Positions 42,933 to 47,157 of a stretch of DNA of 64,000 nt are shown in pieces (position 1 is the stretch's first letter; each line of letters opens with the position of its first letter). The notes beneath the pieces are model-generated. The model searched no databases. It saw only the letters and a program-made list of their open reading frames with translations, and was not told the origin of the DNA. The position numbers and the translations under genes are program-made. The stretch lies in sequence record NC_055781.1, one strand, 5' to 3'. The DNA comes from Escherichia phage p000v.

Positions 42933-43295
42933 ATGAAATATCATGTATATGCGGATTTTGAAGCAAATCCTTCTAAAGACCCTGATTGTCGTTTGATACG
43001 CAGACCATTTGATTCGGCAGCTCAAGCCTGGGCCTGGATTAAATCTAAATCGCCTGGTTATATGTTCTTTGAAGTAGTCGATGACAATGGTACACTGCAT
43101 CCGGCCCCTACAGAAACTATTAATTTCCTTCTGTTTGCTGGTTATGAATATTATCCTTATGGCGGTATTGACGACTTATACGCTAAAGGAAAAACTGTTG
43201 AGGCTCTTCGCGAAATTTATAAAAACGCTGAAGAAAATTTTGACTGGTATCATATTGTTGATGCTCACACCTTTGAAGTGGTGGAACATTCATGA
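42933..43295 (+). CDS. Hypothetical protein
   Basis: 120 aa ORF; SD GGTGAG; tight packing with neighbours. Confidence 0.55.
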   Translation: MKYHVYADFEANPSKDPDCRLIRRPFDSAAQAWAWIKSKSPGYMFFEVVDDNGTLHPAPTETINFLLFAGYEYYPYGGIDDLYAKGKTVEALREIYKNAEENFDWYHIVDAHTFEVVEHS

Positions 43296-43582
43296 TTCTT
43301 TATGCTAAAGTATCATCCGTCAAGAACGGTTATGAAAGCGACCAACGTGCAGCTAAAGCACTAGTTGATGACTACGGTATTCTGACCCTCTTTGAAGTTG
43401 AAAAGGTTTATATTGACCGTTCATCTTCACAGGTTAAATTACTCTGGGAAGACCGTAAATTTAATAGTGTGAACTTTGATTTCTTTATTGAAACAGAAAA
43501 AGGCCCTCTTGAATATGATATTTTCAAGAATCCTTTAAATCTTGAATGTATTGAGTATACTTACATTAATATGGTACGGTGA
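43292..43582 (+). CDS. Hypothetical protein
   Basis: 96 aa ORF with ATGA overlap. Confidence 0.55.
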   Translation: MILYAKVSSVKNGYESDQRAAKALVDDYGILTLFEVEKVYIDRSSSQVKLLWEDRKFNSVNFDFFIETEKGPLEYDIFKNPLNLECIEYTYINMVR

Positions 43583-43586
43583 GTAA

Positions 43587-44102
43587 ATGAATATTCGTTT
43601 AGGCAGTACAATTACTAAGGGCTACGTAATTGATGTCACTACCTATGAAAATGATGGTGACAACTATAAAACCAAAACATTGTTTGAAGTGGAAGAACAT
43701 GAGCTCCAACAGTTTAAATATCTCTTGAAGAAATTTAAGAGCCGTCATTCTAGCACCAAAGCCGAACGCTATTGCGGTAATACACCATTCAGTGATTGCT
43801 CGCTTATTATCTACGAATATCTGGTTGAAGGACTGTTCTCAGACCAACTCCAACCGGAATTTATTAAAAAGGTCTTTGGTATCGAAGTAGACCTTGGTGA
43901 TAAATCTGAAGAAGACGAAGCCCGCGTATTCGACCTGTTCTTTGTGAAAGGCGATGAGATATCTCAAGGACTTATTGATATTCTTGGCTATGCTTCTGAA
44001 TACTATGATTACGATTTCTTGCGTGTAGTTGAACGTGTCGAATTTGCTTATATTGAAAAAGAAATTGTTTTGCCAACAGTTAAAATGGTTGATTTGCTTT
44101 AA
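43587..44102 (+). CDS. Hypothetical protein
   Basis: 171 aa ORF; SD GGTGAG identical in context to the 42933 start. Confidence 0.55.
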   Translation: MNIRLGSTITKGYVIDVTTYENDGDNYKTKTLFEVEEHELQQFKYLLKKFKSRHSSTKAERYCGNTPFSDCSLIIYEYLVEGLFSDQLQPEFIKKVFGIEVDLGDKSEEDEARVFDLFFVKGDEISQGLIDILGYASEYYDYDFLRVVERVEFAYIEKEIVLPTVKMVDLL

Positions 44103-44181
44103 GAATTATGTGTTATTATTAATTCATACCCTCTATTACCAAAGGTGCTCTAAAGTGCCTTTCATAATAGAAAGTTATTAA

Positions 44182-44253
44182 GGCCCTGTAGCTCAATGGG
44201 AGAGCTGTCAGCTCATAACTGATAGGTAGCTGGATCGAAACCAGCCAGGGCCA
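44182..44253 (+). tRNA. tRNA with anticodon CAU (Met, or Ile if C34 is modified)
   Basis: Cloverleaf folded by hand: acceptor GGCCCTG/CAGGGCC (7 bp), D-stem GCTC/GAGC, anticodon stem GTCAG/CTGAT with loop CTCATAA (anticodon CAT at 44214-44216), 5-nt variable loop, T-stem GCTGG/CCAGC with loop ATCGAAA, discriminator A. No encoded CCA. Confidence 0.8.
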
Positions 44254-44294
44254 TATTTTGGGAACATAAATACTCTTAGAAATAGGAGATATTT

Positions 44295-44963
44295 ATGTTC
44301 CATTACACTTATAAAATAACAAATAAAATTAATAATAAAATCTATATAGGCGCTCATTCTACCGAAAATTTAGATGATGGATATATGGGTTCTGGTAAAT
44401 TATTAAAAAGAGCCCAAGACAAGTATGGTATAGAAAATTTTAATAAAGAAATTTTAGAATTCTTTGACACTAAAGAGCAGATGTTTGAAGCCGAGAAAAA
44501 TATCGTAAACGAAGAATTTTTGAATCGTTCTGACGTATATAATTTAAAACTTGGTGGCGAAGGTGGTTGGGACCATTTAAATACTTACGAATTTAATTAT
44601 AAAAAGAAAGAAGCCTCTATTAAAGGAGCCAAAGCTTTTAAAGAGAGATTTGATTCTGATGAAGTGCTTCAAGAAAAATATCGTAAAATGGGTTCAGAGA
44701 AATTAAAGCATCTGTGGACTTTACCTGAATACAGAGAAAAATTCTCTAGCACTAAGTCGTTTTTAAATAAAAATCATACTTCCGAAACTATTGCTAAAAT
44801 GAAAGATACCCACGCCAGGAACAAACACCAACAAGGCGAGAAAAATTCCCAGTTTGGTACTATGTGGATTCATTCATTAGAAGAAAAGAAATCTAAGAAA
44901 ATTAAGAAAACCGATCCTATTCCGGAAGGTTGGATTAAAGGCTATAAACTAAAATTTAAGTGA
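44295..44963 (+). mobile_element. GIY-YIG homing endonuclease gene, SegB-like (adjacent to tRNA)
   Basis: 222 aa (T4 SegB 221 aa); N-terminal GIY-YIG module YTYKITNKINNKIYIGAHST; basic C-terminal DNA-binding region; located beside the tRNA gene as T4 segB. Confidence 0.75.
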
Positions 44964-44970
44964 GGAAAAT

Positions 44971-45316
44971 ATGAAAGGTAATATTTATCTGGTAGTTCAT
45001 GATTTAACGTTTTATTTTAACGAACAGGATACAGTTATTTCGCGACCGGTTGATTAATTCATTATATCAACACGCTGATTACGTTTATTTCCAAAATGAA
45101 TTTGGCCATTGGAAGTTCCTTAAAAATCGTTCCGGGTTAACTAGTTTTGAATACTTTGACCGTAAAGACCTTTTAAACGAAATTCCATTGCAACATCGGT
45201 TCCAGAAACGCGAATCATTATATTATTGCCGTCATATACCAAACGCAGAATGTGCCAATGAAGCGATTAATCTATGGCGTAGACGTAGAGAACAAATTGA
45301 TGATATGCCAAAATAA
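44971..45316 (+). pseudogene. Possible frameshift-split gene (28-codon ATG ORF followed by an 88-codon ORF lacking an ATG start)
   Basis: ATG 44971 with SD GAGGAAAAT opens a 28-codon ORF ending at 45057; the 45050-45316 track ORF is in another frame and has only a TTG start with no internal Met until the last residues. Confidence 0.3.
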
Positions 45317-45484
45317 GAAGCCGGGTCGCTACCGGCAAGACGTCGGACTGATGTTCCCTGGGTAAGGACTGGTCTTAATAAATCTTTACGATTTGTTAAT
45401 ATCCCCTTACATCACAGCAGAAACGGCGCGCAGAATTATCGATTCGAGGAAATATCTTTGCCGTAAGCCGAGTAGCGTTTTTGA

Positions 45485-45576
45485 CGGAACGTTCGGATAT
45501 GGTCGAGATATGGCCTTTTAAAAATATTGAGTAGCGTCAACTGCTTAATAACCGGGTTCGAATCCCGGCGTTTCGT
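45485..45576 (+). ncRNA. tRNA-like element (canonical T-arm and acceptor pairing; D/anticodon arms do not fold convincingly)
   Basis: CCGGG-TTCGAAT-CCCGG T-arm followed by CGTTTCG, which can pair with CGGAACG about 85 nt upstream; could be a degenerate tRNA or a small stable RNA as in the T4 tRNA region. Confidence 0.25.
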
Positions 45577-45617
45577 ACAAACACTTACCTAGTAGGTGGA
45601 AACCCCGACAAGGTATA

Positions 45618-45648
45618 AAGCCCCTTCCGAAAGGTTGGGGCTTTTTTG
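45618..45648 (+). terminator. Rho-independent terminator
   Basis: AAGCCCC-TTCCGAAAGGTT-GGGGCTT hairpin followed by TTTTTTG; near-identical copy at about 61579-61608. Confidence 0.7.
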
Positions 45649-45656
45649 TATAAATA
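45649..45656 (+). promoter_or_regulatory. Late promoter (TATAAATA)
   Basis: Plus-strand TATAAATA about 36 nt upstream of ATG 45692, immediately after the terminator. Confidence 0.6.
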
Positions 45657-45691
45657 TAGTAAACAATAAACCTACTTTCTAAGGACCATCG

Positions 45692-46318
45692 ATGTATACT
45701 TTTAATGAATTTTTAGCCGAAACGGAAGTAATCACCGAAGCCGGTGTACGTATGACAAAAGAGAAATGGCAAGCTGCTTACGATGCTATTTCTGGTACAA
45801 AAACTAGTACAGAGTTTTTCAAAAACGTTCAAGCCATGTACGGTATCGACACTTCCAGCCAAAAAGAATATTACAGAGCTTCTAAAGCATTCAAAGATAT
45901 TGTTAGTGGTGGTGTTTCTGCTAAATCTGGTTCGCCTAAAGTAAAACCTGCTCCTACCATTCCTAAACCTGCGACCCCTAAAGCAATAGCAAAACCTGAG
46001 CCTAAGCCTGAAGTAAAAGCAACTCCTAAAGCTCCTGCTCTTAAGTTTGATACTTCTAGCCTGGAAAAAAAATATAGACAACTATCTTCGCTTGTTCGTG
46101 ATATTGAATCCGATACATCTTCACTCGTTCGTGAATTCAATAGTCTTCGTAATGGCCAACATATCAACAACCTTGATACCCCAGACCTTTATCGTCTTTA
46201 TTTGACTATCGAAGGTTTGAAGTATACTCAACCACTTCATGATGAGATTAAAGAAAAACTTCGACAAGCAGGTCGTTTGGCTGCTGACGCTGCTCAGTAT
46301 GCAAAAACTCGTAAGTAA
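45692..46318 (+). CDS. Late-expressed protein with CTS-like N-terminus (candidate capsid internal protein) and Pro/Lys-rich linker
   Basis: 208 aa; N-terminus MYTFNEFLAE|T resembles the internal-protein CTS (LxE site at residues 8-10); central PKVKPAPTIPKPATPKAIAKPEPKPEVKATPKAP; late promoter upstream. Confidence 0.55.
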   Translation: MYTFNEFLAETEVITEAGVRMTKEKWQAAYDAISGTKTSTEFFKNVQAMYGIDTSSQKEYYRASKAFKDIVSGGVSAKSGSPKVKPAPTIPKPATPKAIAKPEPKPEVKATPKAPALKFDTSSLEKKYRQLSSLVRDIESDTSSLVREFNSLRNGQHINNLDTPDLYRLYLTIEGLKYTQPLHDEIKEKLRQAGRLAADAAQYAKTRK

Positions 46319-46320
46319 AG

Positions 46321-46342
46321 AATGGGGACTTCGGTCCCCATT
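46321..46342 (+). terminator. Stem-loop (possible terminator or RNA processing site)
   Basis: AATGGGGA-CTTCGG-TCCCCATT hairpin after the 45692 gene; no strong T-run. Confidence 0.35.
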
Positions 46343-46370
46343 AGGGGGTCTATAACTTACTGAAAAAGTT

Positions 46371-46429
46371 GTTTACTTCTTCCCTAGATGTGTTACTATA
46401 GAACCTATCAACAACATGAGGAAAATGTT
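46371..46429 (+). promoter_or_regulatory. Early promoter + leader cassette (PeSL-like)
   Basis: GTTTAC (46371-46376), TGTTACTAT -10, CTATCAACAA leader, SD GAGGA. Confidence 0.55.
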
Positions 46430-46933
46430 ATGAGTCTTTACACTGAACTGAATAAAAAATCTGAAGAATCTGCTGAAACTATTTTTAAAAACGTGCAAAA
46501 GCGTATTTTAGAAAAGATGTATAACGCTGCATCTAAAGGTGAAAAATCTTGCCAGTTTCCGATGAGGTGTTCTTCTGATTTATGCGCAAATACTATTGAA
46601 TGGTTGGAAAGTGAAGGTCTTACAGTAGAGAAAAACCCGGCGACTTCTATTGACAGTGAATCATATATTAGTATTTCTTGGGATAAATCAAGGGTAGAAG
46701 AGAAAGATGGTGATTGGGTTGTAGATGTTAAAACTTCTGATGGTGGACGTTCTGTTGAAGTTTCAGCTGTAGTTAAAGGTACCCACGAACAAAGGACTTG
46801 GGGCTGGGGTGGTGAAGAAAAAGAAATTGTTCTTAGTGTGATTGCCAGGTCAACTAGTAATAAAATTGCACAAAGCATCATTGACGCTGCAATTGCTGAA
46901 GCAGAAAAAATTTGCAAAATTAAAAATAAATGA
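46430..46933 (+). CDS. Hypothetical protein
   Basis: Start at M15 of the track ORF (SD GAGGA); 167 aa. Confidence 0.55.
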   Translation: MSLYTELNKKSEESAETIFKNVQKRILEKMYNAASKGEKSCQFPMRCSSDLCANTIEWLESEGLTVEKNPATSIDSESYISISWDKSRVEEKDGDWVVDVKTSDGGRSVEVSAVVKGTHEQRTWGWGGEEKEIVLSVIARSTSNKIAQSIIDAAIAEAEKICKIKNK

Positions 46934-46992
46934 TGTACAATCACCAAGGATGGTGATACTATAGACTTATCAACTACAGAGGAGTAAACAAA

Positions 46993-47157
46993 ATGACTAC
47001 TTTAATTATTTGGTTCGATGAAAATGAAGAAACATACTGTGTGAATATTGGTGAAAGCCCAATGCCTGAATTTGAATCCTCAGATAAAAACTCTGTTGTA
47101 TCTTGGGCTGAAGGTTATAAAGCAGCTAAAGGTGACGTTGAAATAATTTACATCTAA
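46993..47157 (+). CDS. Small hypothetical protein (54 aa), not in ORF track
   Basis: ATG 46993 preceded by the duplicated 45-nt leader with SD GAGGAG; MTTLIIWFDENEETYCVNIG...; stop TAA 47155-47157. Confidence 0.5.
   Translation: MTTLIIWFDENEETYCVNIGESPMPEFESSDKNSVVSWAEGYKAAKGDVEIIYI

Follow-up and report, generated by a model that had tools for sequence, protein, structure and literature searches.

The stretch of DNA analysed here (the window) comprises 64,000 nucleotides (nt) of Escherichia phage p000v (sequence record NC_055781.1), in which a preliminary description had pointed out a tRNA gene with anticodon CAU and, about 1.2 kb downstream, a tRNA-like fragment in a noncoding gap. The genes follow each other in the order tRNA(CAU), the segB homing endonuclease, a small frameshifted open reading frame (ORF), rnaD, rnaC and a terminator (Table 1). 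At the homologous locus of T4, the order is a tRNA array, tRNA-Ile (anticodon CAU), segB, tRNA-Arg, rnaD (species 2 RNA) and rnaC (species 1 RNA). The annotation of T4 bears out the eight tRNAs that it had been said to carry at this place, and tRNA(CAU) is indeed the sole tRNA that ARAGORN finds in the 64 kb. Between 44100 and 45700 the sequence is 97.6% identical to that of Escherichia phage LF82-4 (Mosigvirus). The window belongs to a Mosigvirus-type T-even phage, and the locus is a reduced Mosigvirus-type form of the standard T-even 'tRNA subcluster II', which is unremarkable as such. Very probably, the tRNA-like fragment represents the 3' part of rnaC, and the locus as a whole is to be read as tRNA(CAU), rnaD and rnaC. 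Both RNAs are already known as entities, and the finding itself is an ordinary one. For the window, it amounts to a correction of the annotation: the 'gap' is two known RNA genes that are often missed or overwritten by genome pipelines.

The gap had been given as 375 bp without coding sequence. No ORF of at least 60 amino acids (aa) was found in 45317-45691, and the gap ends at the ATG (45692) of the next ORF; however, it holds rnaD, rnaC and the terminator. A blastn search with the 344-nt gap sequence matched 801 phage records, and conservation in about 800 records indicates that the element is more than a product of chance. Where the gap matches RB68, RB9 and the original T4 record (X03016), these records annotate rnaC and rnaD, or 'species 1 RNA' and 'species 2 RNA'. 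Read beside T4, G8 and AV116, the gap follows T4 collinearly: rnaD comes first, then a 6-nt spacer and rnaC, and last a small hairpin before the terminator, all downstream of segB as in T4; the 344 nt are about 88% identical to T4, and within rnaC 138 of 140 positions are. The rnaC covariance model (R1) matched 45440-45579 with 156 bits (E~1e-34) over model positions 1-141, that is, over the full length of the family. The gene order agrees, as rnaC stands after segB and rnaD and before a terminator in T-even phages, and inside a tRNA array in other genera. What had been described as a 92-nt fragment is actually the 3' two-thirds of a 137-nt RNA.

Table 1. Features of the tRNA(CAU)-segB-rnaD-rnaC locus (positions in the window).
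Feature	Position	Strand	Basis or remark
tRNA(CAU)	44182..44253	+	ARAGORN, anticodon CAT; Rfam RF00005
segB-like GIY-YIG homing endonuclease, 222 aa	44295..44963	+	phrog_314, E=1.1e-49
Small conserved ORF, phrog_3355, frameshifted	44972..45316	+	phrog_3355, E=2.2e-38
rnaD ortholog (T4 species 2 RNA)	~45313..45433	+	Collinear alignment with T4 rnaD; consensus fold
rnaC ortholog (T4 species 1 RNA)	45440..45579	+	C1 to discriminator U73 = 45440-45576, then ACA
rnaC, predicted acceptor 5' strand CGAUUCG	45440..45446	+	Pairs with 45569-45575
rnaC, predicted long composite arm	45447..45516	+	AGG/CCU base and four helical segments; hexaloop UUGACG at 45481-45486
rnaC, predicted 10-bp arm	45525..45550	+	Hexaloop CGUCAA at 45535-45540; 9/10 stem pairs covary
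rnaC, predicted T arm CCGGG-UUCGAAU-CCCGG	45552..45568	+	Stem 99% paired
rnaC, predicted acceptor 3' strand CGUUUCG and discriminator U	45569..45576	+	
Trailer hairpin between rnaC and terminator	45586..45615	+	Fold; conserved with T4
Intrinsic terminator, GC-rich hairpin and U6	45617..45650	+	Fold

The tRNA(CAU) gene was accepted as a tRNA both by ARAGORN and by the Rfam tRNA model, against which its cloverleaf scored 62.4 bits (E=2.4e-12; gathering score 29). The gene lies just upstream of segB, in the slot of the T4 gene annotated tRNA-Ile, and judged by this position it is the ortholog of T4 tRNA-Ile. Its acceptor stem GGCCCUG/CAGGGCC contains the pairs C4:G69 and C5:G68, by which E. coli TilS tells tRNA-Ile2 from tRNA-Met (PMC11947777). 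The closest annotated relatives are tRNA-Ile and not tRNA-Met genes: E. coli genomes yielded ten matches, each of them a prophage gene annotated tRNA-Ile, and the one that was inspected (H151) has a CAT anticodon. With E. coli tRNA-Ile2 (ileX/ileY) and T4 tRNA-Ile, the gene shares the CAU anticodon, the GGCCC start of the acceptor, both acceptor pairs and A37 after the anticodon. It differs from them in that only 53-57 of 72 nt are identical, in the A54 and A60 of its T loop and in that CCA is not encoded. The T arm lies at 44229-44245, and its loop AUCGAAA, which departs from the usual UUCRANY, is the same in VR7.

It had been left undecided whether a CAU tRNA of this kind is Met or, with a modified C34, an AUA-reading Ile tRNA. 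The position of T4 tRNA-Ile and the pairs used by E. coli TilS make tRNA-Ile2 the likelier of the two, and the gene is probably a lysidine-dependent, AUA-reading tRNA-Ile2. Most likely, TilS of the host would convert it to a lysidine-34 form that reads AUA, a codon that is frequent in the phage and rare in E. coli; in the long ORFs of the window, AUA makes up 15-19% of the Ile codons. An ordinary elongator tRNA-Met is unlikely, although three observations weigh on its side: ARAGORN calls the gene Met, lysidine being invisible in DNA; the GenBank records of relatives carry the annotation tRNA-Met; and the T loop is atypical. A tRNA-Met would, however, have to occupy the place of a T4 gene annotated tRNA-Ile, to have tRNA-Ile genes as its only matches in E. 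coli, and to carry the TilS-recognized pairs (PMC11947777) on a GGCCC acceptor of the ileX type. Moreover, an AUA-rich phage has a reason to supply an Ile2 tRNA. The acceptor of metT, GGCUACG, is unlike the GGCCC of the window gene. A separate case is Salmonella phage Melville (locus L007, positions 808-883), in which one of two CAU tRNAs stands out. It is presumably identical to E. coli ileX (tRNA-Ile2), and would then be a host-like copy carried by a phage.

The structure of rnaC was derived by comparison. Homologs were gathered from GenBank phages, IMG/VR and metagenomes, which gave 36 distinct sequences from 12 genus-level groups (Tequatrovirus, Mosigvirus, Gaprivervirus, Karamvirus, Kagamiyamavirus, Gelderlandvirus, Winklervirus, Marfavirus, Moonvirus, Kanagawavirus, Mosugukvirus and unclassified Straboviridae). 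The model is a 137-nt cloverleaf-like RNA, in which an acceptor stem, a long composite arm, a 10-bp arm and the T arm would meet in a four-way junction. The perfect T arm noted earlier is present and is the T arm of rnaC. The minimum free energy (MFE) of the window copy is -50.1 kcal/mol (z=-4.2), and the single-sequence MFE fold equalled the derived structure in seven of eight sequences tested. A structure-independent MAFFT alignment had 91% of the cells paired and 29 pairs changed on both sides; the final alignment of the 36 sequences had 91.1% and 35, respectively. None of 500 shuffles reached the observed values, and slid controls were about 40% paired.

The acceptor stem is formed by the ends of the RNA itself. 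Pair 3:70 is intact in every sequence, as G-C (21), A-U (14) or G·U (one); pair 1:72 is C-G in 35 and A-U in one. At 4:69 and 5:68, 35 of the 36 have U·U; the exception is Pectobacterium phage PM2, the most divergent copy, which has U-A at both positions and in which C1-G72 has become A1-U72 and A8-U has become U8-A. Both sides have changed in 16 of the 20 pairs of the composite arm and in five of six apical pairs, and the middle pair of the T stem is UA in 18, GC in 15 and AU in one sequence. The 'species 1 RNA' of X03016 runs exactly from C1 to U73, in agreement with an RNA whose own ends form the acceptor stem. T4 species 1 RNA has been reported to be 140 nt long, which would correspond to 137 encoded nt plus CCA. 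A kink-turn in the long arm, considered as an explanation of the fold-back, was rejected after reading the sequence by eye, as no G·A tandem is present. Two points weigh against this structure: the alignments A4 and A6 were fitted to the model, and the T4 ends given in NC_000866 differ by one or two nt from those of X03016.

The acceptor stem proposed at first was a different one, namely CGGAACG (45485-91) with CGUUUCG (45569-75). It would make the element a short tRNA-like RNA of about 92 nt, in which T4-type phages have G3·U70, an identity element of alanyl-tRNA synthetase. The complementarity is there, with seven of seven canonical pairs in the window, in T4 and in locus L030, and it is by this pairing that ARAGORN reads the Karamvirus copy as a 96-nt 'tRNA-Phe'. 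However, it is not the conserved pairing. In 13 of 26 sequences pair 3:70 of the CGGAACG stem does not form, and none of the pairs in this stem shows a compensatory change; only four or five of the seven pairs are canonical in the Gelderland-, Marfa- and Mosugukvirus copies, where the stem is impossible. CGGAACG begins with the final two bases of the hexaloop and continues into the 3' strand of the apical hairpin GCGUUU-UUGACG-GAACGU, a local hairpin in which five of six pairs covary; folds in which it is forced into a stem with CGUUUCG lie 7.6-15 kcal/mol above the MFE. In single-sequence MFE folds and in RNAalifold, the 3' CGUUUCG pairs with the first seven nt of rnaC and not with CGGAACG. 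The shorter RNA also disregards the 5' end mapped in T4 (X03016), and is very improbable. The idea of an alanine identity was dropped with it, since G3·U70 occurs only under the CGGAACG pairing or in PM2 alone and is not conserved. A GenBank record shows the same pairing at work. In Enterobacter phage KKP_3262 (OK210076.1; locus L005, 1547-1642), both GenBank and ARAGORN give a 96-nt 'tRNA-Phe(gaa)', which is the 3' part of rnaC, called by means of the internal acceptor pairing that is not conserved; the real tRNA-Phe is found 170 nt downstream.

The earlier statement that convincing D and anticodon arms are missing proved right: ARAGORN called neither a tRNA nor a transfer-messenger RNA (tmRNA) at 45485-45576, and no Rfam tRNA (RF00005) or tmRNA match appeared even at E<=10; where a tmRNA has G3·U70, rnaC has A-U in this phage and, in most genera, G-C. 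This absence, together with the loss from the window of seven of the eight T4 tRNAs, tRNA-Arg included, would suit a decayed tRNA that kept its T arm and part of its acceptor when a T4-type tRNA set was lost. In T4, however, the same element stands beside the full tRNA set and differs at only two of 140 positions, and a pseudogene would not show 35 compensating pairs in a 137-nt RNA conserved in 12 genus-level groups; the decayed tRNA can be rejected with hardly any reservation. Of the two identities offered for the element, the one as a species 1/2-type RNA holds: it is species 1 RNA, the rnaC ortholog, with rnaD just upstream. That the gap encodes small proteins instead is suggested by 'hypothetical protein' coding sequences (CDSs) over rnaC/rnaD in G8, F48, Marfa and other records and by a 42-aa TTG ORF in the window (45393-45521), but it is just as improbable, given that these ORFs differ in frame and strand between records, that substitutions come as base-pair-preserving double changes without a codon-position pattern, and that T4 RNAC was detected as a stable RNA.

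The CDSs drawn over rnaC/rnaD are found at L001 2752-2874, L019 1216-1353, L040 342-515, L041 362-472 and L042 504-632, in differing frames and strands, and are probably annotation artefacts. Such spurious hypothetical proteins and the false 96-nt tRNA-Phe of one Karamvirus record are examples of how the two RNA genes become overwritten. Rfam was of little help in recognizing rnaC, as no family was significant over it in 43000-47000 at E<=10, where only the true tRNA was; the weak matches over rnaC and rnaD (isrK, NsiR1, asX2) were dismissed as chance or terminator matches. Outside phages, a pattern scan of 185,579 bacterial genomes gave five matches (high-GC metagenome-assembled genomes, Streptomyces), none of which fits the rnaC profile, and blastn found no match to rnaC in 5,426 E. 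coli genomes. A metagenome scan for new loop variants returned 12 loci, all of known sequence types.

The two hexaloops of rnaC, UUGACG and CGUCAA, are fully complementary, and 35 of the 36 sequences retain all six pairs between them. The Marfavirus clade (six sequences) has UUGGCG and CGCCAA, a double compensatory change from A-U to G-C, and in PM2 both loops jointly lose the U·A part and keep GACG/CGUC. The energies of the loop duplexes are -5.5 and -7.6 kcal/mol when matched and -0.4 when mixed. Taken together, the loop sequences point to a kissing interaction between the hexaloops. If the terminal loops pair with each other, no anticodon would be displayed. Against the kiss it must be said that its support consists of one compensatory event, in the Marfavirus clade, and invariance, and that the complementarity could also reflect an intermolecular dimer or the binding of a third partner by both loops. 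A second putative tertiary contact concerns the unpaired GG before the CCU strand, the first G of which covaries with position 55 of the T loop (G/U to C/G in the three sequences whose T loops are unusual); the second G keeps its place opposite C56. By analogy, this resembles the contact of G18/G19 with Ψ55/C56 in the tRNA elbow, but it is suggestive only.

Comparison with a canonical tRNA (RF00005) reveals similarities of rnaC in the acceptor/T half. A 7-bp acceptor made from the RNA ends would stack on a 5-bp T stem with a UUCGAAU loop, and there is a discriminator base, a four-way junction, the covariation of GG with T-loop position 55 and a location in tRNA arrays. The next-best matches of the rnaC model are real tRNAs, the window tRNA(CAU) with 12 bits and the His, Trp and Ser tRNAs of Erwinia phage COW86c with 9-23 bits. 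Despite these shared features, rnaC is far from being a tRNA: it is twice as long, lacks the D arm and a 7-nt anticodon loop, has tandem U·U in the acceptor, sequesters its 6-nt loops by mutual pairing and in most copies encodes ACA and not CCA. The tRNA-like domain of tmRNA, the bacterial Y RNA YrlA and the tRNA-like structures of plant viruses also carry an acceptor/T-arm mimic on a non-tRNA body and are presumably handled by tRNA-processing enzymes, as rnaC would be. However, rnaC has no Rfam match to any of them, lacks a tag ORF and, in most copies, also lacks G3·U70. The ends of YrlA form a Ro-binding stem, whereas those of rnaC form the acceptor stem.

The gene context of rnaC is also that of a tRNA. 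In Karam-, Kagamiyama-, Gelderland-, Winkler- and Mosugukvirus and in Erwinia phage COW86c, rnaC lies within tRNA arrays, 5-12 nt from the flanking tRNAs, which are tRNA-Trp and tRNA-Gly or tRNA-Phe and tRNA-Trp, and the spacers are like those between tRNAs. Outside the T4-like genera, rnaC is not accompanied by rnaD. U73 is followed by an encoded CCA in the Marfavirus and PM2 copies and by ACA in all others. Residence in arrays and the encoded CCA support, but do not prove, a maturation of rnaC by the tRNA machinery. Accordingly modelled on T4, rnaC would be co-transcribed with tRNA genes, cut by RNase P at C1 and trimmed at its 3' end, after which CCA would be added or repaired by the CCA-adding enzyme of the host, as in the CCA-less tRNAs of T4. 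It should be noted that processing, CCA addition and modification are all inferred from T4 and the gene context, and that a conserved ACA after U73 is unexpected if the trailer is simply trimmed; both weigh against this route. For T4, northern blots showed that RNAC accumulates as a stable late RNA (PMC9697503).

To date, RNAC and RNAD have been termed RNAs of unknown function (PMC3014915, PMC9697503, PMC12685909). They are among the last abundant gene products of T4 without a known function, although species 1 RNA has been known for 50 years. For species 1 and 2 RNA the literature searched gives only 'unknown function' and no published structure; the primary papers of the 1970s-80s and Miller 2003, which lay outside the search, may have drawn a cloverleaf-like fold. 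A prior description of the comparative structure of rnaC or of its residence in tRNA arrays was not found in the searchable literature. The structure and the array residence across the Straboviridae make this RNA experimentally approachable, as the model offers precise mutations in the own-end acceptor stem, the U·U pairs, the covarying hexaloops and the elbow-like contact between GG and the T loop.

As to the role of rnaC, its acceptor/T 'top half' would bind a factor that recognizes tRNA. There is about an even chance that rnaC is a non-decoding tRNA mimic, which acts on a tRNA-recognizing protein via the sequence-invariant acceptor/T half. A more specific proposal is that rnaC, its body locked by the loop kiss, titrates a tRNA-directed defence factor of the host (nuclease or toxin) via C1-G72, G2-C71, the tandem U·U and U73. 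This proposal is doubtful, and what speaks for it is circumstantial. If true, rnaC would be an anti-defence element made of RNA, at a locus already known to counter tRNA-cleaving immunity, and a 50-year unknown would have a function. The segB-tRNA region is an anti-defence locus, as tRNA-Tyr counters Septu in T6 (PMC13096335), and a convergent single-nucleotide polymorphism in rnaD arose in a T4-like phage during its adaptation to a semi-permissive host (PMC12685909). On these two grounds, a role of rnaC and rnaD in host-range or defence conflict is worth testing.

The rnaD gene is assigned both by sequence homology and by its position directly 5' of rnaC, from which it is separated by the conserved 6-nt spacer AAUUAU. 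Its consensus fold has nine pairs with compensatory changes. A 5' hairpin GCCGG-GUCGCUA-CCGGC (45320-45336) has a closing pair that covaries (A-U, G-C or G·U), and a closing helix GUCGUCG/CGGCGCAC surrounds a long, variable internal hairpin. The 5' end is placed here by analogy with T4 only and is uncertain, because no tRNA-Arg precedes rnaD in the window; unlike in T4, it is the frameshifted small ORF that does. The window copy further differs from T4 in ending with GCAG instead of ACCA and in private substitutions at 45340 and 45430, which are absent from the 11 other aligned rnaD sequences and form the two sides of one predicted pair of the closing helix (U-A to A·G). The possibility that rnaD is a diverged paralog of rnaC was rejected: the rnaC model gave only 2 bits on the rnaD 5' hairpin, and rnaD has no T arm.

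In Marfaviruses, an element of about 52 nt lies between tRNA(CAU) and rnaC (Klebsiella phage F48, L019 ~1140-1193; also L022, L023 and L025). It has a 7-bp closing stem GGGGUGG/CCACCCC, in which C-to-U changes of the 3' strand keep G·U pairs, and folds with -21.3 kcal/mol (z=-2.0). Possibly, another small RNA here takes the slot of rnaD.

Downstream of rnaC, the base of the trailer hairpin is CUUGC/GCAGG in T4 and CUUAC/GUAGG here, which is a compensatory change. The hairpin could be a processing or stability element. The plus-strand terminator after it was missed by a simple terminator scan and recovered by folding; the homologous site is annotated as a terminator in G8 and as a potential terminator in X03016.

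The homologs of the ORF at 44295-44963 are annotated as homing endonuclease or segB in relatives and in T4. In the ORF that follows, one extra G near 45042, relative to LF82-4 and G8, splits the reading frame into 44972-45058 (28 aa) and 45050-45316 (88 aa), which makes the ORF a pseudogene unless the extra G is a sequencing error. tRNA-Arg, which is present in G8, AV116 and T4, is absent from the window. The slot after segB (44964-45316) is a mosaic: T4 and AV116 have only tRNA-Arg, G8 has tRNA-Arg and the ORF, and the window and LF82-4 have only the ORF. This pattern fits with exchange around segB driven by the homing endonuclease.

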